Positions 22,225 through 54,049 of a stretch of DNA of 64,000 nt are shown here, piece by piece. Position 1 is the first letter of the stretch. Each line of letters begins with the position of its first letter. The position numbers and the translations under genes were made by a program. The DNA lies in contig CAJTXT010000005.1 in assembly GCA_910583875.1 (NCBI GenBank), positions 72,104 to 136,103 of the forward strand, given 5' to 3'. This DNA is from an uncultured Vampirovibrio sp. Its GTDB lineage: Bacteria; Cyanobacteriota; Vampirovibrionia; Gastranaerophilales; Gastranaerophilaceae. The notes under the pieces are model-generated. The model was given only the letters and a program-made list of their open reading frames with translations. It was not told the DNA's origin and did no database searches.

Positions 22225-22361
22225 AATAAATAAATAATTTATCTACCAAAGAAAGATTTCATTAGACTTGTAGATATTTTTTCGGGTAATTAGTTTTTTT
22301 ATAAAAATAATTGGGGTCTTGTAATTTTTTTTTGAGCATATAATAATATAAATAGCTTTAT

Positions 22362-22435: not shown

Positions 22436-22467
22436 TTTTTATTTGCTTTATTTTGGGCTAATTCGGG

Positions 22468-22586: not shown

Positions 22587-22860
22587 AAGATAGAAAACCC
22601 AGTAAAGAAGATTTTAAATTAGCAGTTGATATTTTAGAAGAAATTTTGAATTACAATGAGCCGTACGAGCAAAAGAAATTCCAAAACAAGCGAAATTGCG
22701 AAATATGCAAAGAGATTATAGAAAAGCGTTATAGATAAAGTTGAAAATTTAATTTTTTTATACCAGTGCTATTTTGAGATTAGAGATATTTATGATAAAT
22801 AAGTATCAAATTGCAAATTAAATTCAATAAGAAGCCTGTTGAACACTTTTTGAACACTAT

Positions 22861-24573
22861 TCATTCGCTAGCTTGTTGATTTGGAAGTTCTGGATTTAAA
22901 TCAATGCCATCAACCCAAGATAATTTTACATTATAACCAAATCCTTTTAAATCCGTAATTATTTTGTCCAAGGCTAACTTACTTATAAAAGTAAGTTTAT
23001 TCTCTCCTTTATCATTAATTATTAAGTATCTAATAGTATAATCTTGATGTGCATTCAAAGAATTGTTTAATCTATGCTTAGGATTATCAAGTTTATCATT
23101 TACACTCGGGACAAAGACTTCTTTCATTGAGGCAAATGCTCTTGCCGAAACATAACCTTGATTAAACAAATGACTCAGATTTGCAGCTTTAGTACCTATT
23201 TTAGAATGAATAAATTCTTTTTTATTAGGTTCGAATATATCACAAATTTCCATTTTATCGCCATCAATGGTAATTTGTTTATTTATTTGATCTAACAATT
23301 CTCCATTCAATTGATTACAAAAGTTTCTATTAAAAATCCTTTCTTTATCAATATGTTTAGTTTCATTTATTTTTTCATTAAGTATTTCTTGAGTAGTATT
23401 ATGTTTTACAGTTTCATCTACTTCTATTGTTTCGCCAATGTCTTCAATATTTTTATTTATTCGTTCATATTTATCAGTAGATAAGCCATACCATACTGCA
23501 TTAGACAGAATATAAACCTGATTATCAAGTTTAAGTTCTCCATATAAACATTTTAATACAGACCATTCTTTGTATTTATTACCTTCTTCATTTAACAAAA
23601 TTATTTTATCTTGATTTAAATTAAGATTTTCTGGAGTTTCTCTTAAGCCAAGATAATCATTTAAAGATAATTTTTCAAATGGTTCAGAACTACGAGAATT
23701 TTCTGCAAGTTTATATTTAATGCTCGAAACAAGAGTTGAATCATAATCAATTTCAGGTTCAAATAAAAAGAAATTTGAGTCTTCCTCTGTAAGTTTATCT
23801 TTTAATATTTCGTTTAATTCTTTCTGTTTTTGGCTCGATAACGGTCTAAGACCTTTAAAAAACTTATTTACAATATCACTATTTATTTGCACATTTTTAT
23901 ATAAATCTAATAATAAACTTAATCTATCATCTAAATAATTCCAACAAGGTATTTCTGATTCTTTAAATCTCATTTTTATATTTAATGGTCCGTATTTGCC
24001 TATAACGGAACTTATTGTTGATGAATCCGCAACTGCATTTAAATGTCTAACTATATCATTATCTTCTAATTCTGCATTAAAAATTTCGTTTGATAGTTCT
24101 TGTGCATTTTGAAATTCTGTATTTCTAGGATTGCTTGATATGTTGCGAGTTCCTGCTCGTCTGATTTTTGCACCTTGATCAATCAAAGCCATTGCTGTAT
24201 ATATCCCAAACGTATCCTCTATTTTGTCTTTTGTTATGTTATGTCTGCCTTGTCCAAAATTTATTGCAAATAGGTATTTTTGATTATTATGTACAATTTG
24301 TTTTATTACAGTAAGTCCTTCGGCTGCGGTATTTGCAAATTTATCTTTAATGGTATCTTTTAAGATTTGCTCATCAAATTCTATTACCCAAGCTGGTTTT
24401 TGTCCTGCGCGTCCATTCTTATATAGAAAATAATTATCATTTTCTTCGCCACCTAAAATAACATTACTTTCTTCATAGTTTTCAATGTAATTATCTCTGC
24501 TATTAAGATTACAGTCTGCTTTTAGTAACATAATGTTTAAGTTAACTGTTTTTACTTTTTCTTCTTCCGACAC
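22861..24573 (-). CDS. 570-aa orphan, possibly a TIGR04141/DUF6119-like 'sporadically distributed' protein
   Basis: GTG start behind GGGAG. N-terminal 'LNIMLLKAD'. C-terminal 'ICDIFEPNKKEFIHSKIGTKAANLSHLFNQG' resembles a nuclease motif. The family name is from memory and was not searched. Confidence 0.35.
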   Translation of the reverse strand: MSEEEKVKTVNLNIMLLKADCNLNSRDNYIENYEESNVILGGEENDNYFLYKNGRAGQKPAWVIEFDEQILKDTIKDKFANTAAEGLTVIKQIVHNNQKYLFAINFGQGRHNITKDKIEDTFGIYTAMALIDQGAKIRRAGTRNISSNPRNTEFQNAQELSNEIFNAELEDNDIVRHLNAVADSSTISSVIGKYGPLNIKMRFKESEIPCWNYLDDRLSLLLDLYKNVQINSDIVNKFFKGLRPLSSQKQKELNEILKDKLTEEDSNFFLFEPEIDYDSTLVSSIKYKLAENSRSSEPFEKLSLNDYLGLRETPENLNLNQDKIILLNEEGNKYKEWSVLKCLYGELKLDNQVYILSNAVWYGLSTDKYERINKNIEDIGETIEVDETVKHNTTQEILNEKINETKHIDKERIFNRNFCNQLNGELLDQINKQITIDGDKMEICDIFEPNKKEFIHSKIGTKAANLSHLFNQGYVSARAFASMKEVFVPSVNDKLDNPKHRLNNSLNAHQDYTIRYLIINDKGENKLTFISKLALDKIITDLKGFGYNVKLSWVDGIDLNPELPNQQASE

Positions 24574-24737
24574 AACTCACTCCCTAAATTTGTAATTGAT
24601 ATTATCATCTTACATATAAAAGTAGAGATTTTTAGAAAAATTAATTATTTTTTAAGGTTTGATAAATCTAACATTTTAGATTATTTACTTTAATTGCATT
24701 TAATGTTGTTATTTTGTCGTATAAACCTTATGTTAAT

Positions 24738-25814
24738 TTATTTTATGTAATCTAAATATTCAAGCAATTTTTTCTGCTCAAGATATTTCATGTAGCTTTC
24801 CATGTATTCGTAATCAGGTTCACCAGTATCAGTAACTGGTAAAGTTAGGATTTCTTTTTTTAATCTAGTATCGCTTCTTTTGTAATTGAAACTATACTTA
24901 CCCCGAACTCTATCTGCAATTGTAGTAATAAACATACCAGAATATTTGTTTAGTTTATTGTTATAACCAACTGTAATATCTGATGTAGCAATAAAATCTT
25001 CGGATTTATATATTGAATACCCCATTGAGCCCTCTCCGTTGCGAATAAATGCAATACAGTTCCCTTTTTGGATTAGATATTCATTTCCAGCCTTTTCTAC
25101 AAAGCAAAGAACTCCATTATTCCTATTAGTTGCACCTAGATAAGGTATTCCTTGTTCATGTACTTGTTCTAAGTGATTCAAGCCTTTACTTTTGCCTGCC
25201 ACTAATACTGGGAATATAGCTTTTATTCTAAAATCACACCAACTTTTATTATCAATAATGTTCTTTTTTAACTTCTTTAATTGAGTTAGCTTAAGAACTT
25301 TGTATTGTTCTTTAAGTTTAATTTCACGCTCTTTTATATATTCTTCCATAAATTCGTAATCAGGCTCACCTTTTGAATTTATAGGTAGCATTATCTTGGC
25401 TCTTTTTAATCTGTCACTATTAAATAAATAGCCATAAGAAGCCTTGTTAAGTGCGGTATTTTCTATAGTTTTACATAAAAATAATGCAACATATTTATTT
25501 AAATCTTTTTTATATAAAAGATTTATAGAAGCACCACTAAATCCTCTACCAACAAAGTTATATTCGTGAAAAAAAGCTTTACCCTTAATCGGATCAATAG
25601 AAATAGCATTTTTTGAACTTATGCATCTTTCATTCGCTTTTACAAAAGATATTAGTCCATTATTCAATGTAGAAGTTGAAATATACGGTATATTTCCATC
25701 AATATAATTTTCTATAGGTTTCCCGTACACATTTTTGATTTCAAACAATTTGCAAATCTGAAAATCTTTCCATTCTCTGTCTTTTAAAGATTTAACCATT
25801 TTTACCCTCATCAA
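24738..25814 (-). CDS. R-M specificity subunit (HsdS-like, BcgI-B-like) with two target-recognition domains
   Basis: 358 aa. Internal duplication: 'PINSKGEPDYEFMEEYIKEREIKLKEQ' and 'PVTDTGEPDYEYMESYMKYLEQKKL' end the two halves. Confidence 0.8.
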   Translation of the reverse strand: MMRVKMVKSLKDREWKDFQICKLFEIKNVYGKPIENYIDGNIPYISTSTLNNGLISFVKANERCISSKNAISIDPIKGKAFFHEYNFVGRGFSGASINLLYKKDLNKYVALFLCKTIENTALNKASYGYLFNSDRLKRAKIMLPINSKGEPDYEFMEEYIKEREIKLKEQYKVLKLTQLKKLKKNIIDNKSWCDFRIKAIFPVLVAGKSKGLNHLEQVHEQGIPYLGATNRNNGVLCFVEKAGNEYLIQKGNCIAFIRNGEGSMGYSIYKSEDFIATSDITVGYNNKLNKYSGMFITTIADRVRGKYSFNYKRSDTRLKKEILTLPVTDTGEPDYEYMESYMKYLEQKKLLEYLDYIK

Positions 25815-27714
25815 ATAAATAGGCTCTGCCTTGTGCTATCATTGAGAACTCAAATGTTAAATAATCAGCAATTGTTTTGTTAAAATCTTTTTCTGTTGGT
25901 ATTTCGTCATTAAAATAATAAAAAGAGTGTAACCATTCGTCAGTTGGTTCAATAGTAGATTTAACACAGAATTTTGTAGGAGCTTCAATTCTATTAAACC
26001 ATACATCTAACAAATGTTGTTTCTTGTCTTTAGCATATTCTGTTTCGACTAAGCCAATGTGTGGAGATACTTTGAAACCATCGTCCTTGAAATCAATAAA
26101 TTTACATTCTTTATCTTTAGGATGTGGTTTATGTGCTGTAAATATAGCTATACATGGATTAGTTCCCACCCCATAAAAAGTATCGCCACTTAAAGTAATT
26201 ACCCCTTCTAATGTGTGGTGCTTTAGAATGTTTTCCTTATAGTTTTGTTCATCTTTTGTTTTGCCAGTTAAAGATGATTGAGGAATAATAACCACAACCT
26301 TACCATCTTCTGCCAAGGAATCTAATAAATGTTCGACAAAACTAATTTCATATAATGACGGATTCGCTTTAGAACCTTGACTATAAGGAGGGTTCATCAT
26401 ACCAACATTGGCACCTTTAAGTTGCAATTCAGCTTCATTGCATCTTAAAAAGTCTTCATCTATTAAATTGCTTTTGCCATCACCACGTATAATCATATTT
26501 GTTGTAGCAATAGTAAACATATATGGTTGAAGTTCTATACCATGAAGCTGATTTTTACGGATACTCTCTTTTTGTGTTTCGGTTTTGGCTTTCTTTAACA
26601 TATTATGCATTGCAGCAATTAAGAATCCCGCCGTACCACAGCAAGGGTCAAAAACAATATCATCAGGTTTTAAGTCAACAAGATCACAAAATAATTGAGT
26701 TATATGTTTAGGTGTTAAAATTATTCCTAATGTTTGCCCATCACCTCCTGAATAACTCATAAATTCACCATAAAATCTTCCAAGATAATCTTCTGCAGTT
26801 TTTGTATATTTTATGGTTTTGTAAATATTATCATAAATTTGTTCAGCATAGTATTTTAAAGGAGTTTTACCTAAAATTGGGTTAATTTCATTTAAAATCT
26901 TTGTATCTTTAATAACTGCAAATTGAGTTAATAGTTTATCTTTTTTTACAGTAGGTGAAACTTTAGAACGTTGTAAATTTTTATCAATGGCATTATAAAT
27001 TTTATTTCCATCTGTGTCTATATCATCCCCTATAAGTTGTTCAAGATTAAATGACCCTTTTTCAATTTCTCGAAGAGCAAGCAAGATTCCAGAAACAACA
27101 AGAGGCTTCTGTGTATCTTGCAAATTACCATAATTTCTTAAATCCTCATGTAAATTTTTGGCGAATTTAAGAATTTCGGTTGTTTCTTTTTGCAAATCAG
27201 TGTTTTCGCCGAGAATTTCTCTTGTATAATATTCGTCGATATTTTCTTCATTAAATATATAAAATGATTCGACATCTGGCATTATCTTGCAATACTCACG
27301 TTCATTTATAAATAGAGGTGTAATTTTGTGATGTTTTTCATTTCCAGAAACACCAAATGCAATGATCTTTTTATAATTAGTATTATTTATAAGATGTTTT
27401 CCATAAAAGTAAGCACCATTTACTGCGTATTGTCCGACAGATTTAGTATCTGTACTTATTAAATTCTTGTCATCATATTTTACATGTTTTGATAGATCTG
27501 ATTTATCTTCAATGACAAGTATAAAATCTTTCACAACTCCAACATACTCCGGAAAACCAACATTTCCAGTACCTTTCTTTGATGCTGTTTTTAATGCTTC
27601 GTCAATTTCTTTTATTGAACAGCCTTGTGGGTCTAAACAGATTTTTGCTTCTTTTAATAAATCATAAACCCATAAATCAGTTTTGACTTCCTTTTTTGCC
27701 ATATCATATACCAT
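25792..27714 (-). CDS. fused endonuclease and N6-adenine methyltransferase subunit (BcgI-A-like, Type IIB)
   Basis: 640 aa. N-terminal PD-(D/E)xK-like 'GFPEY-x12-VIEDK'. SAM motif 'VFDPCCGTAGFL'. Catalytic 'MNPPYSQ'. Overlaps the S-like gene by 23 nt. Confidence 0.7.
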   Translation of the reverse strand: MVYDMAKKEVKTDLWVYDLLKEAKICLDPQGCSIKEIDEALKTASKKGTGNVGFPEYVGVVKDFILVIEDKSDLSKHVKYDDKNLISTDTKSVGQYAVNGAYFYGKHLINNTNYKKIIAFGVSGNEKHHKITPLFINEREYCKIMPDVESFYIFNEENIDEYYTREILGENTDLQKETTEILKFAKNLHEDLRNYGNLQDTQKPLVVSGILLALREIEKGSFNLEQLIGDDIDTDGNKIYNAIDKNLQRSKVSPTVKKDKLLTQFAVIKDTKILNEINPILGKTPLKYYAEQIYDNIYKTIKYTKTAEDYLGRFYGEFMSYSGGDGQTLGIILTPKHITQLFCDLVDLKPDDIVFDPCCGTAGFLIAAMHNMLKKAKTETQKESIRKNQLHGIELQPYMFTIATTNMIIRGDGKSNLIDEDFLRCNEAELQLKGANVGMMNPPYSQGSKANPSLYEISFVEHLLDSLAEDGKVVVIIPQSSLTGKTKDEQNYKENILKHHTLEGVITLSGDTFYGVGTNPCIAIFTAHKPHPKDKECKFIDFKDDGFKVSPHIGLVETEYAKDKKQHLLDVWFNRIEAPTKFCVKSTIEPTDEWLHSFYYFNDEIPTEKDFNKTIADYLTFEFSMIAQGRAYLFDEGKNG

Positions 27715-29014
27715 CCTTTAAAATTTCATCAAACTTGCTTGCCATGTACAATGGAATATTATAAAGCCCATTGTTTATCTCAAAATTCGCAAGTGAAGTT
27801 CTTATGCTTATCTCGGGTTCAAATTTTTCTCGATAAACCTTAAGACTTTTTGCTTGTAAATTTGTATTAGCTTTCACTTCAACAGGAATAACATACCCGT
27901 CAGTTTGAATAATAAAATCAATCTCAGCATTTCCAGACTTACTTATCCAATAAGCAATTTCCATATCTTCAATAGTTTTTAATTGTTGCAGTACGTATTG
28001 TTCTGCTAAAGCACCGTTAAATTCTGTAAAAATTTTATCTCCTTCAATCAAAGTTCTTGCTGGAAGCTTACTTAATGCAGATAATAAACCTACGTCTAAA
28101 ATAAATAATTTAAATGCTTTGGTGTCTTCATATGCTTTTAATGGTAAAGCAGGTTTTGTAATACGGTTTATTTTATAAACCAGTCCACAATTAATAAGCC
28201 AAGATAAAGCTTCCTCAAACTCATCTGCCCTTGCTCCGGATTTTATTTTTTTATAAACAAACTTCTTACTTTCTTGAGTTAATTGACTTGGAATTGACTC
28301 CCATAGTAAATCAAGTTTCAACTTGCCAGTAGAAGATATATGTTTTGAGAAATCTCTTGTATATGCATCTAAAATATTTTCTTGAACCTTACGAACTTTT
28401 TGAAAATCATTTGTTTCAATAAATGTACTAACCACTTCTGGCATTCCGCCAACGTAATAATATTTTTTTAACCATTCAATATACTTTTCTTTAAAAACTT
28501 TTATATTAGGAGATTTAGGACTTTTTAGTAATTCTATAAAATTACTTTCACCAATGGCATCTAAAAATTCTAAAAATGATAGAGGATATAAATCAAGAAA
28601 ATCTACTTTTCCAACCGGAAAAGAAACATTCTCATGAATAGCAACTCCCAATAAACTGCCAGCTGCAATAATATTATATTCTGGAGTGTTTTCATAAAAA
28701 TATTTAAGAGCCGTTAAAGCTTTTGGGCATTCTTGAATTTCATCAAGTATTATTAGTGTTTTTTGGGCATCAATTTTAGAATGGGTTAACTCCAAACCTT
28801 CAATAATTCTTTTTGTATCAAAATCTATTGAAAACAGATCACACATTAACTTGTCTAATTCAAAGTTTATATAAATAACCTTTTTGTATTCAGTTTTGCC
28901 AAACTCTTTCATTAACCAAGTTTTGCCAACTTGACGAGCCCCTCTGATTATCAATGGTTTTCGTTTTGAATTATTCTTCCATTCTATGAGCTTATTTATT
29001 GCATATCGTTTCAT
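27704..29014 (-). CDS. AAA+ ATPase (AAA_14/DUF4143 type) with a C-terminal PD-(D/E)xK-like motif
   Basis: Likely start 'MKRYAINKLIEW' (the ORF track extends to 29065). Walker A 'GARQVGKTW', Walker B 'LIILDEIQ'. C-terminal 'AEIDFIIQTDGYVIPVEVKA'. Confidence 0.75.
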   Translation of the reverse strand: MKRYAINKLIEWKNNSKRKPLIIRGARQVGKTWLMKEFGKTEYKKVIYINFELDKLMCDLFSIDFDTKRIIEGLELTHSKIDAQKTLIILDEIQECPKALTALKYFYENTPEYNIIAAGSLLGVAIHENVSFPVGKVDFLDLYPLSFLEFLDAIGESNFIELLKSPKSPNIKVFKEKYIEWLKKYYYVGGMPEVVSTFIETNDFQKVRKVQENILDAYTRDFSKHISSTGKLKLDLLWESIPSQLTQESKKFVYKKIKSGARADEFEEALSWLINCGLVYKINRITKPALPLKAYEDTKAFKLFILDVGLLSALSKLPARTLIEGDKIFTEFNGALAEQYVLQQLKTIEDMEIAYWISKSGNAEIDFIIQTDGYVIPVEVKANTNLQAKSLKVYREKFEPEISIRTSLANFEINNGLYNIPLYMASKFDEILKDGI

Positions 29015-29203
29015 ATAATCTCTCTCAGTATATAACTTAACAAAAATTAATAATAAATAACTCATCCGAAAATACGATTTTACATTTTTTTAAACGACTT
29101 TTGAGAAATTTATAGCATTATATCAAATGACTTTGAGTGGTAATATTACATTTTTATTAACTACTTTTTCTAAAAATAAAGTTACTTAAAAATAACGTTG
29201 CCC

Positions 29204-29251
29204 GAAATTCTCAAACTATCTGTGAAAAATTCCTAAACTGTTTGTGAATTT
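29204..29251. promoter_or_regulatory. three more copies of the AATTCnnAAACT motif, including a 23-nt near-palindrome
   Basis: 'gaaattctcaaactatc' (29204-29220) and 'aattcctaaac-t-gtttgtgaatt' (29228-29250). Located between the WYL gene stop and the ATPase start. Confidence 0.45.
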
Positions 29252-29292
29252 ACACAATTGAAAGGTTATAGATAATTTAAAATGGTTTAAAT

Positions 29293-30255
29293 TTAATAAT
29301 TTTTTAAATTACTTTCCATATATTGTTTATACTCAGCTTGCAGTGATTTTGGTGCAATAATTTTGCAGCCGCTGCCCCATTTGAATACATGCCAAATGAT
29401 TTCTAAGCTTCCGCTTGCTCTAAAAGTTACAGTATAACTACCGTCCGTATTATATTTACCCCTTTGTGTCGGATGGAAATTGAATTGACTCGCTTCCTGT
29501 GCTAGTTCAGGTGAAAACAAAAGTTCAACATCAAGAACTTCACCGTGATACACACCAAAAGACTGGTTTGTATATTTTTGCAAGTTAAAATCACCTTTAT
29601 CAAATGTTTTATCGGTAAGTTTTAATCCTTCAAATTTATGCAACAAATAGTTATAAATTCCATTACCTTTGGCTTTTTCCCTTGCAACAAGATAAATCTT
29701 TTCTCCGTAAATCATTCCAAGAGGTTCAATTAATCGAATTTTATCGTTATAAATTCCATTAACCATTTTTGAATGTTGAACAGCTTCCCGAATAATTTCC
29801 AGCGTTTCTATACTAATCTTATATTGCGGCATTTGGCGGACTGCATAACCTTCTGTTTGCATATACAGTTCAATATTTGTTTCAAGAGAATTTGCATTTT
29901 TACGGTTAAATGTCTTAATTTTTTCAACTGTTTTGGCTAATTCTGCTTTCATTTCTTTATTCGTTGTTCTGCGTTGGCATTGCTCAATATTTGCTATCTC
30001 TTTAGGAGAAAAAGAAATCAAATTTGAAATTGAATAGTTTATAAATCCCCAATGTTTTTGAGAATCGTTTGTTTCAATTTCATCAACAGACGGAAAAATA
30101 CAAGTTAAACTATCTCTCATTCGTTCTGCAGTCCTTCGTGAAACATTATATCGTTCTGCAATTTCAGAAATCGTTACCCCTTGAATTTTTGATGACATAA
30201 AAATTGCCAAATCTAAAATATCTGAAATTCGTGAATATCTTGGTTTATCTTGCAT
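29293..30255 (-). CDS. HTH plus WYL-domain transcriptional regulator (BrxR/CapW-like architecture)
   Basis: 320 aa. wHTH 'VTISEIAERYNVSRRTAERMRDSL'. WYL-like 'YNDKIRLIEPLGMIYGEKIYLVAREKAKGNGIYNYLLHKFEGLKL'. Confidence 0.7.
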   Translation of the reverse strand: MQDKPRYSRISDILDLAIFMSSKIQGVTISEIAERYNVSRRTAERMRDSLTCIFPSVDEIETNDSQKHWGFINYSISNLISFSPKEIANIEQCQRRTTNKEMKAELAKTVEKIKTFNRKNANSLETNIELYMQTEGYAVRQMPQYKISIETLEIIREAVQHSKMVNGIYNDKIRLIEPLGMIYGEKIYLVAREKAKGNGIYNYLLHKFEGLKLTDKTFDKGDFNLQKYTNQSFGVYHGEVLDVELLFSPELAQEASQFNFHPTQRGKYNTDGSYTVTFRASGSLEIIWHVFKWGSGCKIIAPKSLQAEYKQYMESNLKNY

Positions 30256-30344
30256 AATTATTCCCCTTGAAATTATTATAGCACAATATGTCCGTATTTG
30301 TCGCAGATATACGTTAAAATGATAACAAAATAAGGAGATAATAT

Positions 30345-30932
30345 ATGGATAAAATTAAATTATTAATCAAAAATAGAGAACAAGATACATTCGCAATACA
30401 TTATGCCTGTGAATGTTTTTATAATGGCGGTGCTATTGCACCTTCTATTTGCTCAATCAGTATTGTAAATATGAGAACAAACAATCTGCATACATTTGCA
30501 TTGCATAATTATATTTTACAAGGGAAATCATTGATTGATAGTGAAAAACAATTATTGTTAGATTTTGTTGATTTTTACAAATCATTGAACAATCCAATAT
30601 TTATTCACTGGGCAATGGATAGTTTGCAATACGGATTTAAAGCTATTTTTGCCAGAGCTGAAAACTTTGGAATATATGATTTTGATTTATCAAAAATGCA
30701 AGATATAAATCTAAAAAATTATATTGATTTATCACTTATAAGAAGTTTAGAAATGAATAATTGCAAGAGAATTTCTGTTCTAAACGGCAAAGATGAGGCA
30801 ATAAGTTTTGATAAACGTGACTACAATTTAGTCAAATTATCGACAGAAGGTAAAGTTTTAGGAATATTAGAATTATTTGAAAAATATCTCAATAATGATT
30901 TAGTTGAATTAGATGATGATGTAATCTACTAA
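30345..30932 (+). CDS. hypothetical protein, cassette gene 1
   Basis: 195 aa, SD site AAGGAGA. No confident domain. An RNase-H-like strand/helix pattern is only a guess. Confidence 0.5.
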   Translation: MDKIKLLIKNREQDTFAIHYACECFYNGGAIAPSICSISIVNMRTNNLHTFALHNYILQGKSLIDSEKQLLLDFVDFYKSLNNPIFIHWAMDSLQYGFKAIFARAENFGIYDFDLSKMQDINLKNYIDLSLIRSLEMNNCKRISVLNGKDEAISFDKRDYNLVKLSTEGKVLGILELFEKYLNNDLVELDDDVIY

Positions 30933-30940
30933 AGGTTAAA

Positions 30941-31861
30941 ATGACATATCTGAATATAATAAATAAAATTAATAAAGAATACGGAGTTGAACTCAATGAA
31001 GACGATATCAAAAAAATAGTTTTTGGTATACAAAATAAAATGTGTTATTTTTTAACTAATCCTAATGATTTGAGTAATTCAAGAATTGCAGTAATTGTTA
31101 AATATGGACAAAATCTTATTAAACTTATCACTTATCATGATGGTTCGATAGTTTGTGTTTTACCATGTAATCATTCACAAAATGCGGATATGTTAAATAT
31201 TCCTGATATTAAAAAAGAAATTGAGTTATTAAATAAAATTGAACTAAAGAATTTAAGTCATATTTGTGCATATTGCAATAAGGCTTTGAAACCGGAAGAA
31301 AAAACAATAGATCATATCATACCAAAATCAGCTAAAGGGAAAAATATTGTTGATAATTATGTTATTTGTTGCTCAGAATGTAATACAAAAAAAGCAAATT
31401 ATGATATTAATTCTTATTTAGAAGCTAATGATAAAATTGCTTATTGTTTTGATAATTATTTACAAATGATTGATAATCAAAGAAAAAACAAGTTTTATTC
31501 AAAATTAATTAAACAACATATCAAAGAACATATTTTCTCAAAGGCAAAAAAATACCAATTATATCGAAATGAGCGAATTAATCAAATACAAGATATAGAA
31601 TATAAAATAAAAGGTAGTTCTATTTCTTTTAAAATCAATAAAACACAAGCAAAAATTTTAGATTTTTATCTTGAAAATAAAGATTTTACTGAATATAAAT
31701 TATTGGCAAAACAATTAAAAATTAGTAAAAGCGAATTACAAACACATATTACTCATATCAATTGTTTAACAGGAATTTTTATACTTAAAGAAGTGAGTAA
31801 AAATGGTATCAGATTAAATGGGTTATATAAAGATAAATTAGAAATTATTAAACAAGATTAA
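30941..31861 (+). CDS. HNH endonuclease-domain protein with a probable C-terminal HTH, cassette gene 2
   Basis: 'CAYCNKALKPEEKTIDHIIPKSAKGKNIVDNYVICCSECNTKKAN'. C-terminal 'AKILDFYLENKDFTEYKLLAKQLKISKSELQTHI'. Confidence 0.75.
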   Translation: MTYLNIINKINKEYGVELNEDDIKKIVFGIQNKMCYFLTNPNDLSNSRIAVIVKYGQNLIKLITYHDGSIVCVLPCNHSQNADMLNIPDIKKEIELLNKIELKNLSHICAYCNKALKPEEKTIDHIIPKSAKGKNIVDNYVICCSECNTKKANYDINSYLEANDKIAYCFDNYLQMIDNQRKNKFYSKLIKQHIKEHIFSKAKKYQLYRNERINQIQDIEYKIKGSSISFKINKTQAKILDFYLENKDFTEYKLLAKQLKISKSELQTHITHINCLTGIFILKEVSKNGIRLNGLYKDKLEIIKQD

Positions 31862-39579: not shown

Positions 39580-40620
39580 ATGAGAATTTCGAATGTGAGT
39601 ATGCAATTTTTTAACCATTCAAAACGTAATGTGTTAAAAAATCAAACTATGTATTCCGCATCACACAAAGGTGCGGATTTTTTATGTTTTGGGAAGAATA
39701 TTGAATTAGCGAAGAAAGTTAGTATTATCCCGTCATCCAAACCAACCGATTTAGAAAGAAATATTCAAAAAATAGCTGATATAGATACATCCGAAACAGA
39801 TATAAAAAAATTTAAAAATGGCGAAACATATGTAAATATAAAAGATAATGTTCGAGGGAAAGATGTATATTTAATGCCAGCATCAAACGAAAATGTTAAT
39901 GATAATTTAATTGAAACATATTTAAAAGCTGATGCAGCAAAAAGAGCAGGTGCATCCAAAGTTATTGCCGTAATGCCAAATTTTGATTATGCAAGACAAG
40001 AAAAAAGAATGGAACAAGGCGAACCAATTGCAGCAAGATTAAACATGGATTTATTAAAAACATCAGGAGTTGATGAAATAATAACAACTGATTTACATAC
40101 ACCTGCAATTGAGGGTTTTGCCCCAAACAGCATGAGTGTTACACATCTTGAATCAATAGAACTAATGAAAGATTATTTCAAATCACAGGGAATAGAAAAT
40201 CTTATGGTAGTAAGTCCTGATTTAGGCGGGACAAAGAGAGCCGACAAATTAGCAAAAGCACTCGGCTGTGATAAAGCAATTGTTTATAAACATAGACAAG
40301 CGCATAATCAAGCAACCGCAGAAACATTAATCGGTGATGTACAAGGAAAAAATTGTATTTTATACGATGATATTATAGATACAGCAGGAACAATAACAGA
40401 AGCTGCAAAACTTTTAAAGCAAAAGGGAGCAAATGATATTTATGTATGTGCAACTCATGGTTTATTTAACGGAAATGCAATGCAAAAATTATCGGAAGCA
40501 CCAATAAAAGAAGTAATTGTTTCTAACACTACACCTAAAAAAGCAGATTCTATTGATAAAATAAAACAAGTTGATATTGCACCTCAAGTAGTCGGTGCAA
40601 TGTTAAATATATCTGTGTAA
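39580..40620 (+). CDS. prs: ribose-phosphate pyrophosphokinase with an N-terminal extension of about 45 aa
   Basis: 'FKNGETYVNIKDNVRGKDVYLM', 'DLHTPAIEGF', 'VVSPDLGGTKRA', 'LYDDIIDTAGT'. The extension carries 'FLCFGKN'. Confidence 0.88.
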   Translation: MRISNVSMQFFNHSKRNVLKNQTMYSASHKGADFLCFGKNIELAKKVSIIPSSKPTDLERNIQKIADIDTSETDIKKFKNGETYVNIKDNVRGKDVYLMPASNENVNDNLIETYLKADAAKRAGASKVIAVMPNFDYARQEKRMEQGEPIAARLNMDLLKTSGVDEIITTDLHTPAIEGFAPNSMSVTHLESIELMKDYFKSQGIENLMVVSPDLGGTKRADKLAKALGCDKAIVYKHRQAHNQATAETLIGDVQGKNCILYDDIIDTAGTITEAAKLLKQKGANDIYVCATHGLFNGNAMQKLSEAPIKEVIVSNTTPKKADSIDKIKQVDIAPQVVGAMLNISV

Positions 40621-49134: not shown

Positions 49135-50163
49135 TTGATTACAATTTCCCCTGCTTTACATACAAAAACATATAACATATATAATAATCCGGCATCCGGA
49201 TTATCTAAACCAATGCAAAGTTTTAAAGGAAATGATACATCAGATATAGTTTCGCAAGGGGATAAAGCATTAAACGAAAATAATTTTTCTAAAGCTTTAG
49301 AAGCTTATCAACAAGCAAACAAACTAAACCCTGATGATATTAATATTTATAGAAAAATGGCAAAAGCAAATTTTGGTTTAAAAGATTATGCTTCTGCCGA
49401 AAACAATTTTTCCGTTTATTTAGAGAAAAAACCGGAAGATGTTGATTGCTTAATTGAATTAGGTGAAACACAAAGACAAGCAGGATTTTATCAAAAAGCC
49501 TTAAGTAATTTTGAAAAAGCACATAATATAGATAAATCTAATGATTTAGCTCAAAGAAGCATTTTAGAAACTAAGAATAATATTTTAGCAATATATTCAC
49601 CGGAACGAGCAAAAGTAGAAAAAATGGCTTATGCTTCAAATAATTTAAGAGAAGCATTAAATATGACTGTACAATATTTAACACCTGCATTTATGAAAGA
49701 TATGCAAGATGTGTCTATTTCTTTTGGCGAAACAGCACAAATGGGCGGAACTTCTAATATTGCTCAGTATGAAAATTATAAAAATGCTATTACTATATCA
49801 AATTCATATATCTATGCTGCACCGCAAGTTATTGCAGCATATTTAACACACGAATCAATTCACGCAAAAGATAAAGATCCATATACATCAATACGCGAAG
49901 AACAAGATGCCTATGAAGTTGCAACAAAGTTTTGGATTAATCACTCAAATGGAGTAAGCGATCCGGAAATGGATTATGCAAAAGATTTATACTTAAAATC
50001 TCCGGCAGCATTAAGTTCAAGAGTTGAAGAAATATACACACTACGAGACCCTTCAATAGCAAAAACATCTCCAAATCATCCACCTGAGAAGAAATTTCAT
50101 TTTAATACCTCAAAGAAAAAAGCTGCTTCACAATCTATAAAAGAATATAATGTTATTGCATAA
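49135..50163 (+). CDS. TPR-repeat protein with a C-terminal HExxH motif and an F-x-G leader
   Basis: TTG start behind GAAGG. TPR stretch 'ALEAYQQANKLNPDD...'. 'YLTHESIHAKD' followed by 'EEQDAYE'. Leader '...MQSFKGND'. Confidence 0.55.
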   Translation: MITISPALHTKTYNIYNNPASGLSKPMQSFKGNDTSDIVSQGDKALNENNFSKALEAYQQANKLNPDDINIYRKMAKANFGLKDYASAENNFSVYLEKKPEDVDCLIELGETQRQAGFYQKALSNFEKAHNIDKSNDLAQRSILETKNNILAIYSPERAKVEKMAYASNNLREALNMTVQYLTPAFMKDMQDVSISFGETAQMGGTSNIAQYENYKNAITISNSYIYAAPQVIAAYLTHESIHAKDKDPYTSIREEQDAYEVATKFWINHSNGVSDPEMDYAKDLYLKSPAALSSRVEEIYTLRDPSIAKTSPNHPPEKKFHFNTSKKKAASQSIKEYNVIA

Positions 50164-50194
50164 AAGCCTGTAAAACTTAAGTTTTACAGGCTTT
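50163..50194. terminator. hairpin between convergent genes
   Basis: 14-bp stem aaagcctgtaaaac/gttttacaggcttt. Confidence 0.55.
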
Positions 50195-50198
50195 AAGC

Positions 50199-51332
50199 TT
50201 ATTTAGATGTCTTTTCTGTATCACCTTCAGGGTTAACCGAAATTTTAACTTGCCCTTTAGATACTTCAAATATAGTTTCCGTTGCATATGCAACATAATT
50301 TCTATATTTCTTTTTTCTAATTTTTTTGTCTTTAATCAATTTATCAACATGTTCAAAATAAGATTGCATATACTTTATTCGATTTTCTTTATCTTCACAC
50401 AACCATTGAAGAAATGGTTTATTTCCCTTCTTAGAATTACATCCGCTATGCATTGACATATAATTACTAATATCATCATGGTTATTTTCAATATCATATG
50501 CAAGAATATGGTCAGTATTTGCTACTGAAGTAGATACTAATCTGGAAGCAATTTCATCTGATGACCAAGCTTCTCCATGTTTATTTTTACCGGAATATTT
50601 AACTATCCAAGCCGAATTCATATCAGAAGAAACAGGGAATTCACTTGCCAGTTGTTGTAATTTTTTAGTTTTATGAGGGTTCGAAAGATTTATTTTACTA
50701 ATATCTTCTAACATTATTTTACGTCTAAAAGGAGCTTCTTCATTATTTTTATATATATGACTTTGTATTCCTTTTGCTTTTTTTAACAATAATTCTTTTT
50801 CCTCAGAAGGAAGACTATTTGCTAATGCCTTTATTTTTTGGACTTGTCTTTTTTGTATCTCTTGTAATTGAGGTAATTTGGCATCTCTTAACTTACATAC
50901 AAGACTTCTAATATCTTTTTCTCCAGAAAAATCTGCCATACGAAGAAGTTCATAATAAACACTTTTTTCAACTGGACGCATATAATCAGTATATTGACCC
51001 ATATAATCCAATTGTTCTTCCGGAGGAAGTTCTGAAAGGTCATTTTTTATTTTATGAAACAATGTTTTATTCATCATCTTTTGTCCACAAGCAGGACAAG
51101 GAACATCATTAAACTTTGAAACTAAGAAATCACCGGAATATTCTTTCAAATTATGTCTGGAGGTTGAAACTTTTCTTTCTGTACCAGTAAAGCTCAAAGG
51201 ATAATAAAAAACATTACTCAATTCTTTTATTTGAGCAGTTTGAGGATTACTAATCGGATTTTGAACAACTTGCGGTTTTACATAACTATTTTTGTAAAAA
51301 CCGATAGAATTAATTACAGGGTTAATTTTCAT
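50199..51332 (-). CDS. HNH-nuclease-domain protein with a CxxC element and an F-x-G leader
   Basis: 'CPACGQKM'. C-terminal 'NTDHILAYDIENNHDDISNYMSMHSGCNSKKGNKPF' follows a D-H...N...N..K HNH pattern. Leader '...YPLSFTGTE'. Confidence 0.6.
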   Translation of the reverse strand: MKINPVINSIGFYKNSYVKPQVVQNPISNPQTAQIKELSNVFYYPLSFTGTERKVSTSRHNLKEYSGDFLVSKFNDVPCPACGQKMMNKTLFHKIKNDLSELPPEEQLDYMGQYTDYMRPVEKSVYYELLRMADFSGEKDIRSLVCKLRDAKLPQLQEIQKRQVQKIKALANSLPSEEKELLLKKAKGIQSHIYKNNEEAPFRRKIMLEDISKINLSNPHKTKKLQQLASEFPVSSDMNSAWIVKYSGKNKHGEAWSSDEIASRLVSTSVANTDHILAYDIENNHDDISNYMSMHSGCNSKKGNKPFLQWLCEDKENRIKYMQSYFEHVDKLIKDKKIRKKKYRNYVAYATETIFEVSKGQVKISVNPEGDTEKTSK

Positions 51333-51643
51333 ACTTACCTATCATGCATGCATAATATCTTTATTACATGAAAACAGAAAATGATTTTTTTTGTCAACTT
51401 CAGTTACATTTTGTAAAGTTGAATTTTTTCAATTATTTTTTTTGACATTTGGAATAAAAAAATATCATTTTAAAAAAAAATACACTTGTTTTTAAAAGAA
51501 GTGCATTCATTTTTGACAAAATTGTTGCTTTTTTTAAAACAAATCTTCTTAACACGATAAATTAAATAGCAAATAAATTTGTTTTTATACTTTAACTTGA
51601 TATTATTGCTTATGGTCGAACATGTTAAAAGGTAAGAAGCAAA

Positions 51644-53362
51644 TTGAAAATATCACAAATTAGTAACAACACTCCTTGTAAAAATAATCAAACATTAAAC
51701 AAAAAAAATAATAATAACTATAATACAAATCCAAAATTCCAAGGTGGAGCCATCGATACAGCTTTTAACTTGTTAGACAAAGGATTTAGCGTTCTTGATA
51801 AAAATGCAATGATACAAGTCTCCTTCGTAGATACAGTTTCAACAAATATTCCAAGAACATTAGTTGATTTAAAGACAGGTATTGCAGCTGCATTTGAAAC
51901 CTGCCGACGTGAATTTTCAGGCTTATTTGTAAACTGTTTAATGCCAGGGTTAGTAGTAAAAGGCTTAGCACATGTTCTTCCAAAAGCTGCTGAATTACAA
52001 GGTACTGATGTAGTCGGTTCTTGGGCAAACGGTGATGCTATTGATAAATTAAAAGGTGTATATAAACAAGCACAAGAATCAGGTGCTAGAGATAAAACAA
52101 AAGTTTATGTTGAAAAAGCATTAGGTTCATTAGAAGGTCTTGACGGCAAAAATTGGATTAAATTTGCAGATAAAGCAGCTGCACCGGAATATCAAGAAGC
52201 TATTAACAATGTTGTTAAAGCTATATCTTCAAATGGCAGCGAAAAGAAAACATTATTAAAACAAGCTCAAACAAAACTTGCTTCTGTAACAAAAGCAGAA
52301 AGTATATTAAGATTTAATGGCAAAGCACAAGCAAATCTTGAAGAAACTCTTCGTGATGTTGTTGACTTAGGTTCTAAATTTAATGCTGTAAAAGAAAAAG
52401 CAGTTAAAGGACTTGGTGAATCTGTTGATGATGCTGCAAGAAATGCAAATATTTCTCAAGCTATTGATAAATATGGCTCATCATTAAAAGGATTTGTTAA
52501 TAAGAAGAGCTTAATAGGTCTTGGAATTGTTATTGGTATTGCGGTAAGCATTCAAACAATCAACCGTGCAATTACAAGAAAACAATTTAATGCAGAAGGC
52601 GCACCAATCTACAAAGATTTTGGTAAAAAAGATACAACACAAAAAATGGATGAAAAGCAAAAGAAAACCTTCTTTGCGAAGAAACTTGCTTCTGCTGCTG
52701 GAATGTATGGCTTAGCTGCTGCTTCAATGATGAAGAAACCGTCTTTAGGAATGTTCCAATTCTCAGGTATATTCCCAACAATGGATCAATGCAGATGGAT
52801 TGCTGCTTCTACATTTGCAAGCAGAATGATGGGCGCTGAAGATGAAAACGAATTGAGAGAAACAACTATAAGAGATATAGCTTCCTTCTCCGGATTATAC
52901 TTCCTTGGCGATTATGTTAAAAAGGCTGCTGCATCAGGCATAGAAGCATTATCAAGAACAAAACAAGGTTCTAAATTATTAGGTGAGAATGTTGTATTAC
53001 TAAACCGTAAGAAAGAAATTGCAAAACCTGTACTTGAAAACGGCGCTTCATTTGCTAAGAAAGCTGCTGCACAAGCTGGATACCGTGCAAAACAACTTGG
53101 AAACTGGATTAAGAATACAGACCTTAAATCAGCTGCTGAAGTTGCAAATACTAAGACACGCAACCTAAGAAATATTTGCCGTGTAGCAGATATTGCCTTC
53201 TCTATAGTAATGCTTGGTATTTTACTTCCGAAATACAATCGTTCTGTTACAGAAAAGAAAGTTGCCGCAGCAAAAAAACAAGAAGAAATGCAAAAACGTG
53301 CAATGTTTAATTATTCAACTGTAGAACAAACACCTGAAATTTTTAAAAGTTTAATAAAATAA
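51644..53362 (+). CDS. hypothetical Ala/Lys-rich membrane-associated protein with an F-x-G leader
   Basis: TTG start. 572 aa. Asn-rich leader ending 'NPKFQGGA'. Hydrophobic segments 'LIGLGIVIGIAVSI' and 'IAFSIVMLGILL'. Confidence 0.5.
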   Translation: MKISQISNNTPCKNNQTLNKKNNNNYNTNPKFQGGAIDTAFNLLDKGFSVLDKNAMIQVSFVDTVSTNIPRTLVDLKTGIAAAFETCRREFSGLFVNCLMPGLVVKGLAHVLPKAAELQGTDVVGSWANGDAIDKLKGVYKQAQESGARDKTKVYVEKALGSLEGLDGKNWIKFADKAAAPEYQEAINNVVKAISSNGSEKKTLLKQAQTKLASVTKAESILRFNGKAQANLEETLRDVVDLGSKFNAVKEKAVKGLGESVDDAARNANISQAIDKYGSSLKGFVNKKSLIGLGIVIGIAVSIQTINRAITRKQFNAEGAPIYKDFGKKDTTQKMDEKQKKTFFAKKLASAAGMYGLAAASMMKKPSLGMFQFSGIFPTMDQCRWIAASTFASRMMGAEDENELRETTIRDIASFSGLYFLGDYVKKAAASGIEALSRTKQGSKLLGENVVLLNRKKEIAKPVLENGASFAKKAAAQAGYRAKQLGNWIKNTDLKSAAEVANTKTRNLRNICRVADIAFSIVMLGILLPKYNRSVTEKKVAAAKKQEEMQKRAMFNYSTVEQTPEIFKSLIK

Positions 53363-53701: not shown

Positions 53702-54049
53702 GTGGTTGACAATAGGTCAGCTGGTGTTCTCGGGATTGCAGGAGGTATCAACTTCAAGAGCGGAGACATATCTGGTACTGCTGCAAAAACCTCAGACGAC
53801 AGAGCGAGTCAAGGAACTGAATATTTTATGCAAGAAGGCGAAGAGCAGCAAGGGGCAAACCAACCTTTTGTTGATAGAAGCATGCAGCTTCGTGCCTCCT
53901 TAAATTCTCTTGCGCTTTTAAATGTTGTATCTGTTCTGCAAAATCAGCGGAAGAATTTGCTATTAGATGGTGAAGATATGACGGAAAAAATACGAGCAAA
54001 AAAAGTTGAAAAAATAAAAAAAGATAATGAAAATAATCAAAACAAATAA
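53702..54049 (+). CDS. hypothetical small protein
   Basis: GTG start behind AAGGAGAG. 115 aa. Locally GC-richer than its surroundings. Contains 'GINFKSGD'. Confidence 0.45.
   Translation: MVDNRSAGVLGIAGGINFKSGDISGTAAKTSDDRASQGTEYFMQEGEEQQGANQPFVDRSMQLRASLNSLALLNVVSVLQNQRKNLLLDGEDMTEKIRAKKVEKIKKDNENNQNK

Follow-up and report, generated by a model that had tools for sequence, protein, structure and literature searches.

Early flagellar subunits carry two discrete export signals in an uncleaved, unstructured N-terminus which has no Sec-type core: a small-hydrophobic signal in residues 2-6 (SIAV in FlgD) and a Phe-centred motif, FxxxPhi, about 30-45 residues downstream past a polar spacer. Gastranaerophilales are reported to keep all or part of the flagellar-type III export gate. 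According to a 2026 preprint, a full flagellar gene set is present in about 25% of Gastranaerophilales genomes; the remaining genomes keep flhB, fliI, flgG and others, and the authors postulate a role in secretion. Type III effector signals (the Hop rules of Pseudomonas syringae) have Ile, Val or Pro at positions 3-5, few acidic residues and a disordered, Ser/Asn/Gln-rich first ~50 residues, with no conserved motif. To our knowledge, no injectisome is known in this phylum.

The cysteine protease Prp removes a short leader found on a cytoplasmic host protein, ribosomal protein L27, and copied by the capsid and scaffold proteins of phage 80alpha. The published L27 cleavage motif is MLxx(D/N)LQ(F/L)F'A(S/H)KK. 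The L27 leader is 8-12 aa long and has no variable spacer, and Prp substrates number one to three proteins. Double-glycine leaders, cut by the C39 peptidases of PCATs, follow the consensus LSxxELxxIxGG; they are amphipathic helices of 15-30 aa on small peptides, with L/E/L at -12, -8 and -7. Chaperone-usher donor strands (V-x-F-x-G; FimA TVHFKGEVV, PapA KVTFNGTVV) and TonB boxes (D-T-I-x-V-x-A) have an alternating pattern which serves beta-strand addition to a partner. They act in the periplasm on Sec-exported proteins or on outer-membrane transporters.

The window, a stretch of 64,000 nucleotides from a Candidatus Gastranaerophilales MAG, contains six genes with an N-terminal extension of the same plan; all six N-termini are confirmed in the sequence (Table 1). 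In every case the leader starts at Met1. It comprises motif 1, M-[KR]-[IV]-x-[P/S/A]-[IVL], with Ile or Val at position 3; a hypervariable, basic, acid-poor spacer of 2-70 aa, rich in N, Q, S and K; and motif 2, (D)-x-[VI]-x-F-x-[G/A], which lies immediately N-terminal to the folded domain (0-10 aa). Both ends are kept and the length of the spacer is free. The median position of the motif 2 Phe is 31 in the 572-aa protein family, 37 in Prs and 45 in the HNH family. Acidic residues make up 3-5% of leaders versus 10-14% of protein bodies, and N, Q, S, K and R are enriched. Two independent AlphaFold runs predict that the leader is disordered (pLDDT < 50 at residues 1-38 of Prs, and at residues 1-29 and 31-34 of the 572-aa protein, which has a mean pLDDT of 74). 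Tagged genes are clustered: three are adjacent in the window, as are the two kinase-like genes, and in relatives there are three adjacent in locus L049 and six in locus L046. The source's own gene calls give the same starts for both kinase-like genes; kinase-like 1 begins MNIKGINQ and is 417 aa long.

Table 1. Tagged genes of the window and their leaders
Feature	Coordinates	Strand	Start	Phe (aa)	Description
Kinase-like 1, leader	15798..15845	+	ATG	14	Short leader MNIKGINQYAGLAFCG; true start 15798
Kinase-like 1, gene	15798-17051	+	ATG		
Kinase-like 2, leader	17112..17264	+	ATG	49	MKLNNIFF...GRDLVPFKG; true start 17112
Kinase-like 2, gene	17112-18170	+	ATG		
Prs, leader	39580..39696	+	ATG	37	MRISNVSMQFFNHSK...GADFLCFGK (MRISNVSM...DFLCFGK)
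Prs, gene	39580-40620	+	ATG		Ribose-phosphate pyrophosphokinase
TPR + HExxH, leader	49135..49230	+	TTG	30	MITISPALHTKTYNIYNNPASGLSKPMQSFKG (MITISPALH...MQSFKG); motif 1, 49135-49152; motif 2 (FKG), 49222-49230
TPR + HExxH, gene	49135..50163	+	TTG		342 aa: leader, ~3 TPR repeats, order-specific C-terminal domain
HNH, leader	51183..51332	-	ATG	48	MKINPVINSIGF...NVFYYPLSFTG (MKINPVIN...YPLSFTG); motif 1, 51315-51332; motif 2 (FTG), 51183-51191
HNH, gene	50199..51332	-	ATG		377 aa; CxxC zinc-ribbon-like motif and C-terminal HNH domain
572-aa protein, leader	51644..51745	+	TTG	32	MKISQISNNTPCKNNQTLNKKNNNNYNTNPKFQG (MKISQISN...NPKFQG); motif 1, 51644-51661; motif 2 (FQG), 51737-51745
572-aa protein, gene	51644..53362	+	TTG		All-alpha; hydrophobic segments 94-112, 289-307, 511-529 (hydropathy)

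The [IV]-x-[PSA]-[IVL] of motif 1 and the Phe-centred motif 2 recall the flagellar signals. However, motif 2 differs from FxxxPhi, and the carriers are enzymes and repeat proteins, including a housekeeping enzyme and phage proteins, rather than axial proteins. Some spacers (those of kinase-like 1, phage Prs and the L049 radical SAM protein) are only 2-10 aa, which is below the tolerance of the flagellar model. The composition and the effector-like carriers, including NleH-like minimal kinases, resemble type III effectors, but the tag has two conserved motifs, and in the 572 family position 7 is commonly Asp. Short forms share with L27 a Phe-centred site followed by a small residue and basic residues (NLQFF'ASKK versus NLNFLGSRR); the tag, unlike the L27 leader, has a variable residue after Phe and is found on dozens of proteins. 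In common with double-glycine leaders it has no hydrophobic core, unrelated cargo, a Phi-x-G-[G/A/S] end and often an acidic residue at -8, but it is disordered and strand-like, has a long polar spacer and heads enzymes of 130-650 aa. The alternation D-T-V-x-F-x-G matches that of donor strands and TonB boxes, whereas tagged proteins lack a signal peptide and their domains are of cytoplasmic type. The leaders lack a hydrophobic core, a twin-arginine motif, a lipobox and G/FTLIE; they are not Sec, Tat, lipoprotein or prepilin signals, and the initial annotation had already set aside Sec, Tat and prepilin. Pfam, NCBIfam and PADLOC models give no match over the leader. As no described signal matches, the tag probably marks a sorting or processing pathway yet to be described.

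In the window, a regex for motif 1 heads 5 of 57 genes, compared with 1.7% of internal positions. Each of these five genes also shows F-x-G or F-G within 60 aa, where the F-x-G background is 0.33% per position. With a loose leader filter, 5.6% of ORF N-termini qualify, against 0.6% of internal pseudo-N-termini (~5-9% of genes, roughly nine times the internal rate). Both motifs are kept in orthologues over 27 species and in hundreds of database homologues; the spacer changes freely. Translation of the leaders, which the initial annotation considered probable, is borne out: TTG, GTG and ATG interchange at the same aligned first codon, the frame is open through spacers of variable length, and Phe and Gly are conserved as amino acids, all four codons being used for Gly. 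Reasonable Shine-Dalgarno sites had been claimed for every start. They are good in the 572 and TPR families (AAGG(T), 7-9 nt upstream) but weak for HNH.

It could be argued that the leaders have no common function and reflect AT-rich codon bias, selection on early elongation (AUG-AAA-AUU), low-complexity drift and chance F-x-G. M-K-I starts are generally good for translation, a genome of about 29% GC favours K, N and I, and the motifs are short and degenerate. However, Phe and four-codon Gly persist across species amid changing neighbours and spacers, independent data show a 7-9 fold enrichment relative to internal positions, and acidic residues are depleted though GAT and GAA are AT-rich codons. 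Orthologue conservation is the strongest evidence against chance; it already largely refutes this explanation, which we regard as very improbable.

The common motif 1 and F-x-G first proposed need some correction family by family. M-K-[IV]-S-x-[VI]-[DG]-R and [SN]-F-[KN]-G-[GAS] recur in the 572 family with 22 different spacer lengths (99 of the 120 listed homologues, those passing the leader filter), and the start codon is GTG or TTG behind AAGGT. TPR-family orthologues keep M-[IL]-[STK]-[IVL]-[ST]-[PS] and [SN]-F-x-[GA]-x-D-[IV]-[ST] around a spacer of varying length; motif 1 is offset by one residue (M-I-[ST]-I-[ST]-P), motif 2 may be F-x-A, and the first codon is TTG, GTG or ATG by species, preceded by AAAGG. 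HNH orthologues keep MKIQP[IV] and [FY]Y-x-P-[IVL]-[SN]-F-[TK]-[GS], many with F-[TK]-S in place of F-x-G. Prs was said to bear the same pattern. Its homologues do keep a leader, M-[KR]-I-T-A-L-G...ADIFCFKG (long form) or MIEPIKNLNFLGSRR (short form), but motif 2 of the window copy is degenerate (F-G). Pfam and NCBIfam Prs matches begin at residue ~45-49. The window Prs gene is located among nucleotide-metabolism genes. Phage-encoded Prs retains the short leader under selection; Gastranaerophilales phages evidently copy the host-type leader.

Further carriers are a large atypical-kinase family and, in relatives, radical-SAM, HEAT-like and methyltransferase-like proteins and tandem mTERF-like paralogues. 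Kinase-like 2 has 312 relatives among 50%-identity clusters; most begin M-x-I, many with D-x-V-x-F-x-G. In this family, which was kept out of all training, 46% of members have Ile as their third residue, and [VILAF]xFxG lies within the first 120 aa in 30% versus 4% expected. The carriers share no detectable sequence similarity with one another, in agreement with the original view of one leader on unrelated proteins. At the level of sequence, the tag is established on at least 10 unrelated families, with purifying selection on both motifs. It occurs only in Gastranaerophilales-like genomes and their phages, which upholds the suggestion of a lineage-specific tag, whether for sorting, processing or assembly. 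Many unrelated proteins of the Gastranaerophilales, a group of uncultured, non-photosynthetic gut cyanobacteria, bear one short, flexible two-part tag.

When several per cent of a proteome share an N-terminal tag, its role is usually in sorting. We tentatively prefer, with considerable doubt, to see in the leader a two-part "dock-and-thread" signal for sorting or export, which a flagellar-type export gate may read. Motif 2, with the alternation of an exposed beta-strand, would dock the protein on a shared receptor. A machine would then engage motif 1, a free N-terminus on a flexible spacer; the most concrete candidate is the flagellar-type III export gate. Atypical kinases, HNH, TPR-zincin, repeat proteins and a membrane protein would be its dedicated cargo. 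We infer that there is one reading machine, its identity, and relocation or export as the outcome. The fixed position at Met1 suggests that a free N-terminus is engaged by a pore or enzyme, and conserved ends around a spacer of 2 to ~70 aa, predicted disorder and gene clustering are consistent with dock-and-thread. So are a composition like that of known non-Sec N-terminal export signals, an architecture parallel to the flagellar one, and mostly lineage-specific, effector-like carriers (the weakly NleH1-like kinases, TPR-zincin, HNH, mTERF-like, HEAT-like and methyltransferase-like proteins). However, Prs, a housekeeping-looking cytoplasmic enzyme, is tagged in all relatives examined, and it is difficult to square export with the short leader that phage Prs retains under selection. 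Typical effectors are not core, syntenic and highly conserved, as the 572 and TPR families are; the short spacers and the form of motif 2 also count against it. No flagellar gene is found in ~1.07 Mb of examined loci or 84 kb of this contig, and no sigma-28-type promoter upstream.

Dock-and-thread has two close rivals, a pro-leader removed by cleavage and a docking tag that acts in the cytoplasm. A removable leader would be tolerable on a housekeeping enzyme. In this possible, if unlikely, case a dedicated cytoplasmic endopeptidase would recognise the strand around F-x-[G/A] and remove the leader to mature or activate the proteins, by the logic of Prp and of C39-cut leaders. Motif 2 ends in small residues (G/A, then G/A/S/N) close to the folded domain, like many leader-peptidase sites; phage Prs (M-I-E-P-I-K-N-L-N-F-L-G-S-R-R) resembles the L27 motif and, as in 80alpha, is a phage protein with a host-type leader; and D(-8)...F(-4)-x-G(-2)-[GAS](-1) meets three positions of the double-glycine consensus. 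By pure inference, the peptidase could be the TPR + HExxH protein, whose zincin motif is invariant and which shares the tag's restriction to the order and always adjoins tagged genes. However, simple cleavage leaves unexplained why the motif at the extreme N-terminus is conserved beyond a variable spacer, the residue at P1 or P1' would not be constant, and there is no precedent for a cytoplasmic pro-leader on dozens of unrelated proteins. No Prp-like gene is found in any examined locus, Cyanobacteria and Melainabacteria are absent from the Prp phyla named in two review texts, and the leaders have no NCBIfam double-glycine or other leader-model hit. Less likely again is an uncleaved tag whose two motifs would bind a common hub or scaffold by beta-strand addition, tethering kinases, their possible substrates and other enzymes to one site, for example the membrane, a pole or a complex; by mimicking the motif, phages would attach enzymes of their own to this hub. 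In favour are the cytoplasmic cofactors on which all carriers depend (ATP, SAM, DNA, PRPP chemistry), retention of the tag on Prs and phage Prs, the alternation D-x-V-x-F-x-G, which strand-addition motifs typically show, the disorder of the isolated leader and, in the 572-aa membrane protein, a basic leader that suits a position in the cytoplasm. This reading names no hub, though; an obligatory Met1 position is unusual for plain docking, and a spacer varying to 70 aa is needless. Finally, in a bipartite degron motif 2 would bind an adaptor and the free disordered N-terminus would start unfolding by AAA+ proteases (Clp, Lon, FtsH), giving short, regulated half-lives. A disordered tail of at least 20 aa with a terminal M-basic-hydrophobic motif resembles the ClpX N-terminal recognition classes reportedly defined by Flynn et al. 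in 2003, and the carriers include potentially harmful enzymes (nuclease, peptidase, kinases). A degron is nevertheless improbable: a phage has no obvious reason to keep one on its own Prs, Prs and a very conserved core membrane protein are tagged, and unfolding could not begin on leaders as short as 6-15 aa.

The C-terminal domain of the TPR + HExxH protein has an invariant, zincin-like HE[SG][IV]H...EEQDAY (alignment A5); Pfam finds TPR only, there is no PDB sequence match, and a search with the domain gives just 178 homologues, each of them joined to TPR and Gastranaerophilales-like. The 572-aa protein has no Pfam or NCBIfam family and no Foldseek PDB match at E <= 0.001; it is order-restricted and highly conserved, with 624 homologues, of which the best 120 listed are 66-97% identical. 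The kinase-like 2 profile weakly matches the CK2 catalytic loop and NleH1 kinase. The HNH protein has no PDB relative; it matches Pfam HNH at residues 272-305 (E = 4.4e-5), and C79, C82, H275, N290, H295 and N299 are invariant (alignment A6).

Six proteins encoded in the window begin with a bipartite leader, or tag, and the N-termini quoted for them in the initial annotation are all found in the sequence. Motif 1, at the initiating methionine, is M-[KR]-[IV]-x-[P/S/A]-[IVL]; in some cases it is displaced by a single position. The second motif, (D)-x-[VI]-x-F-x-[G/A], is placed 0-10 residues ahead of the first structured element; the residue after it is small or polar, and basic residues frequently come next. 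The spacer between them is 2-70 aa long. N, Q, S, K and R are plentiful in it, and D+E make up only 3-5%, compared with 10-14% in the protein bodies. The GC content of the window is ~29%. For the two kinase-like genes, the starts that had been assumed are the depositor's gene calls (MNIKGINQ and MKLNNIFF); the longest ORFs of both begin further upstream. A regular expression for motif 1 heads 5 of the 57 window genes and matches 1.7% of internal positions. All five positive genes have F-x-G or F-G in the next 60 residues; the internal rate of F-x-G is 0.33% per position. The initial annotation had proposed a comparison with internal sequence; a loose filter for the leader accepts 5.6% of ORF N-termini, compared with 0.6% of internal pseudo-N-termini. 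In a position-weight scan, 44 start sites (a count that includes the training families) score at least 18, against 1.3 expected.

AlphaFold models built with family alignments have pLDDT below 50 for residues 1-38 of Prs and for residues 1-29 and 31-34 of the 572-aa protein, and the bodies of both are confident. This points to a leader that, as modelled, is a disordered tail with two short linear motifs, neither a folded domain nor a hairpin. An intramolecular beta-hairpin in which motif 1 pairs with motif 2 was considered and rejected, as both leaders are disordered in the models from deep alignments.

Conservation in relatives, as read from aligned sequences, is the main evidence for the leader. 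The 572-aa protein is encoded in identical form on the 168.5-kb contig CATLEV010000005.1 of MAG GCA_949927535.1. Its homologues and the related genome loci carry the name Candidatus Gastranaerophilales. Among the best 120 homologues of the 572-aa protein (66-97% identical), 99 pass the leader filter; in these, M-K-[IV]-S-x-[VI]-[DG]-R and [SN]-F-[KN]-G-[GAS] recur around a polar spacer of 22 different lengths. The genes for the TPR/HExxH, HNH and 572-aa proteins are adjacent in 27 loci of other species, and each orthologue keeps its own version of both motifs; the loss of the leader in homologues, which the initial annotation had named as one case against it, is not seen there. TTG, GTG and ATG are exchanged as the first leader codon among orthologues, and in the 572-aa and TPR families this codon lies at Shine-Dalgarno distance after AAGG(T), a pattern characteristic of real starts. 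Across species the glycine of F-x-G is encoded by each of its four codons, which places the selection at the amino-acid level. F-x-G is present in 68 of 106 full-length TPR family members, and the examples shown without it have F-x-A. Prs homologues have the form M-[KR]-I-T-A-L-G...S-A-P-K-S-x-G-A-D-I-F-C-F-K-G, and more distant ones have a compressed leader (MIEPIKNLNFLGSRR, MIQPITFMNFLGSRR, MNINQTLLTPMSFDGRR). The Prs copy in the window has lost one residue from motif 2 (FLCFGK).

Several features around these starts are also shared between species. In loci L004-L030, as in the window, the TPR/HExxH and 572-aa genes start with TTG or GTG in almost every species and ATG is rare, which suggests deliberately weak or regulated initiation across the order. 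In most species, and at the same position in L004-L030 as in the window, the conserved element (A)AATTGATATTATTGCAA precedes the start of the 572-aa gene by ~35-50 nt; the divergent HNH gene likewise has a conserved TTGACA-type box on its upstream side. Within the 312-nt divergent intergenic region, the two may serve as a common operator or promoter. Four loci (L007, L012, L027 and L037; CAYYPD01, CAZNEN01, CAZHCP01) are titled 'uncultured Muribaculaceae bacterium'; they contain the Gastranaerophilales-specific 572-aa/TPR/HNH trio at 60-73% identity and have ~30% GC, and the organism name in these records is probably wrong.

Tagged genes and other features with their positions (in the window unless a related locus is named)
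Feature	Position	Strand	Remarks
359-aa protein	9755-10852	-	begins MSLEFGSSGFSSGLEGFNQSLEQF (F-G/S-G rich); conserved beside recA and secDF; not obviously the same leader
Defence-like island	12344-31861		
Kinase-like protein 1	15798		tagged
Kinase-like protein 2	17112		tagged
Second HNH protein	30941-31861		in the defence-like island
Prs	39580-40620	+	tagged
TPR/HExxH protein	49135-50163	+	tagged
Invariant TSPNHPP and extreme C-terminus of TPR/HExxH protein	50100-50163		
HNH protein	50199-51332	-	tagged
Element upstream of 572-aa gene	~51590-51620		
572-aa protein	51644-53362	+	tagged
115-aa ORF, no family match	53702-54049	+	GTG start; just downstream of 572-aa gene; Gly/Ser/Thr-rich N-terminal half with INFKSGD, helical C-terminal half
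mTERF-like gene array, L046 (JGI 3300031555)	1-9915		
ThyX with intein, L041	7656-9530		
ThyX, uninterrupted, L042	7480-8292		

The 572-aa protein is all-alpha, has three hydrophobic segments and is restricted to the order; it has no fold match in the PDB, and its charge distribution leaves the membrane topology ambiguous. The C-terminal domain of the TPR protein has an invariant HExxH...EEQD and is found in only 178 sequences among 5.8 billion, every one fused to TPR. The HNH protein combines a zinc-ribbon-like CxxC with an HNH core. Profiles of this protein and of the TPR C-terminal domain find no relative in the PDB beyond TPR repeats. In each of the 17 species of alignment A5, the TPR/HExxH protein also has an invariant TSPNHPP and ends invariantly in Y-[DNQ]-x-I-A; this terminus may represent a further short linear motif, here at the C-terminal end.

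The kinase-like carriers have no Pfam match. Kinase-like protein 2 has 312 relatives among 50%-identity cluster representatives. In 125 full-length relatives, Ile is at position 3 in 46%, and [VILAF]xFxG occurs within the first 120 residues in 30% against 4% expected; typical forms of motif 2 are DTVSFSG, DVVSFKG and DTVQFTG. In the family alignment G-x-G, DSINPNN and I-D are near-invariant, which supplies the glycine-rich loop, the D-x-x-x-x-N catalytic loop and the metal-binding D. By these residues, the family of the two carriers has a protein-kinase-like catalytic core. The family profile weakly matches CK2, at its catalytic loop (E = 9e-4), and NleH1, a type III effector kinase (E = 6e-3). 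A metagenome scan with kinase-like protein 2 as the single query found nothing.

Tagged genes tend to neighbour one another. Other tagged proteins in the relatives are five tandem mTERF-like paralogues of 600-639 aa (TTG start, MKIFAINSYS...NISFNGSRR), a 257-aa HEAT-like protein, methyltransferase-like and radical-SAM proteins adjoining a tagged kinase, a HAD-like-kinase fusion and several small proteins. The mTERF-like family is mostly eukaryotic or organellar. L046 has a tandem array of five near-identical mTERF-like helical-repeat genes (600-756 aa); all five are tagged and start with TTG, and the gene directly after the array is a tagged kinase-like one.

Short-leader variants of Prs are located on phage-like contigs. 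One of these, L041, has small genes in one direction, an SNF2 helicase and an intein-bearing ThyX, and IMG/VR contigs of 34-195 kb have the same kind of Prs. The phage-type leaders differ in sequence and keep both M-I-x-P-I and F-x-G-x-R-R; the tag therefore matters inside the infected cell, or is at least tolerated there. A small phage ORF has the same kind of start (MKINPINLGNISFLKRK). A DNA-pattern scan of viral contigs (MKIxP[IV]...FxG) was discarded, as most of its matches were fortuitous and lay in unrelated phages.

Leaders that unrelated proteins have in common at their N-termini are a familiar kind of object, and the tag was compared with the known ones. It fits no tested family in sequence, two-motif architecture, lineage or carrier set. 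The initial annotation had stated that the leader matches no described signal, and this holds: when the carriers are scanned, no model in Pfam, NCBIfam or PADLOC covers it, and searches of a paper library for Gastranaerophilales or Melainabacteria with N-terminal motifs, extensions or secretion gave no description of it. Its exclusion of Sec/Tat and prepilin signals is likewise borne out. A Sec (type I) signal peptide has a basic n-region, an h-region of ~10-15 residues and A-x-A; the accepted leaders are polar, no 12-residue stretch in them reaches a hydropathy of 1.3, and classical signal peptides are present on other window proteins (e.g. MKKISLLMLLLIF). There is no twin arginine or h-region as in Tat signals (S/T-R-R-x-F-L-K) and no lipobox (L-[AS]-[GA]-C); Cys is sometimes found at x of F-x-G, where it is not conserved. 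A class III type IV prepilin leader is basic and ends in G before F/M-T-L-I-E and a hydrophobic helix; here the Gly is followed by polar sequence or by the start of a soluble domain. Microcompartment peptides (an amphipathic helix of ~18 aa) and encapsulin peptides ([LIV]-x-[IV]-G-S-[LI]-[KR]) are also rejected: no helix is predicted, the motif differs, and the window gene lists contain no shell-protein genes. Double-glycine leaders agree in part. Their G-[GAS] at -2/-1 with a hydrophobic residue at -4 is found as F(-4)-x-G(-2)-[G/A/S/N](-1) in the 572-aa, TPR and Prs families. However, leaders processed by PCAT/C39 form an amphipathic helix with conserved L(-12), E(-8) and L(-7), whereas here the region before the Phe is polar or strand-like and modelled as disordered. 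NCBIfam leader models give no match at E <= 1, and no ABC/C39 gene lies beside the tagged genes in the window.

Four readings of its function were weighed. The tag is possibly a sorting or export signal that first docks and then threads its carrier, a reading we hold only tentatively. Like early flagellar type III substrates, the carriers have a disordered, small-hydrophobic N-terminus (pLDDT below 50, [IV] at position 3, [IVL] at position 6). The position at Met1, the acid-poor polar composition and the Ile at position 3 agree with this, as may a Phe-centred second motif 30-45 residues downstream, an arrangement that recalls, in part, the paired export signals on early flagellar subunits. The Phe is conserved at median position 31-45 in long-form families; the +4 position is not consistently hydrophobic. 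The carriers are clustered and resemble a cargo or effector set, and according to a preprint Gastranaerophilales keep flagellar export genes even when not fully flagellated. However, Prs and phage Prs carry the tag, spacers can be very short (short forms put the Phe at 4-15), the 572-aa and TPR families are core and syntenic, and flagellar genes are absent from ~1.07 Mb of related loci. No sigma-28-type promoter lies upstream of the tagged genes, and the nearby sigma factor is SigB/F/G-type, not FliA. A narrower form of the export reading is rather doubtful: a bipartite N-terminal translocation signal of an unrecognised class would define the cargo (a few per cent of genes) of an export or injection route in gut Gastranaerophilales, possibly the flagellar type III apparatus of non-motile members, with expanded NleH-like kinases, repeat proteins, a nuclease and a zincin among the cargo.

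That the leader is instead removed by cleavage is somewhat unlikely. The site would be directly before the domain with small residues at its end, and the adjacent TPR-zincin is a candidate peptidase. Short forms (NLNFLGSRR) partially resemble the L27 leader motif cleaved by Prp, MLxx(D/N)LQ(F/L)F'A(S/H)KK, although the residue after the Phe is variable here; the Prp system is also a precedent for copying by phages. Cleavage alone leaves the conservation of the extreme N-terminus unexplained, and ~1.07 Mb of related loci contain no gene for L27, L21 or a Prp-like protein (peptidase C108); the only marginal tblastn match there falls within the gene for a SpoU methylase. Motifs that are not cleaved and dock to a hub in the cytoplasm are an unlikely reading, and a bipartite degron is a very improbable one. 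A purely compositional origin is contradicted by the orthologue data and is scarcely credible.

Gastranaerophilales, a group of uncultured relatives of cyanobacteria, occur widely in the guts of humans and animals; to our knowledge, very little has been learned about their cell biology. That several per cent of their proteins carry a conserved tag points to a dedicated, undescribed machine for sorting, export or processing, and there is a real chance that this machine is new. The tag gives a simple sequence rule for listing the clients of the machine from any genome, marks the order-specific, highly conserved 572-aa membrane protein, TPR-zincin and atypical kinases as functionally linked, and is copied by the phages of the lineage. 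If it is an export signal, the question of host interaction becomes directly testable for these bacteria; if it is a processing tag, the L27/Prp principle is widened from one protein to dozens. The translocation-signal reading, if true, would mean effector-based interaction with the host or other microbes in an uncultured human-gut lineage, and a sequence rule for listing effectors in any genome.

The tagged Prs of L041 lies beside its ThyX gene (624 aa), into which a LAGLIDADG-type intein is inserted; in L042, the related 195-kb IMG/VR phage, ThyX is uninterrupted and 270 aa long. In the window, the two tagged kinase-like genes are part of a region that resembles a defence island. It also contains a 1058-aa SWIM + SNF2 helicase (best PADLOC matches DpdE and ZorD), DUF6119, a type I restriction-modification HsdS/HsdM pair, an AAA_14/DUF4143 ATPase and a WCX-domain regulator. 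A reading of the tagged proteins as a defence system was rejected: the kinase-like genes lie in this island, yet no PADLOC family fits any tagged protein. The distant relative L049 has the same neighbourhood of kinase-like gene, SNF2 helicase and type I restriction-modification genes.
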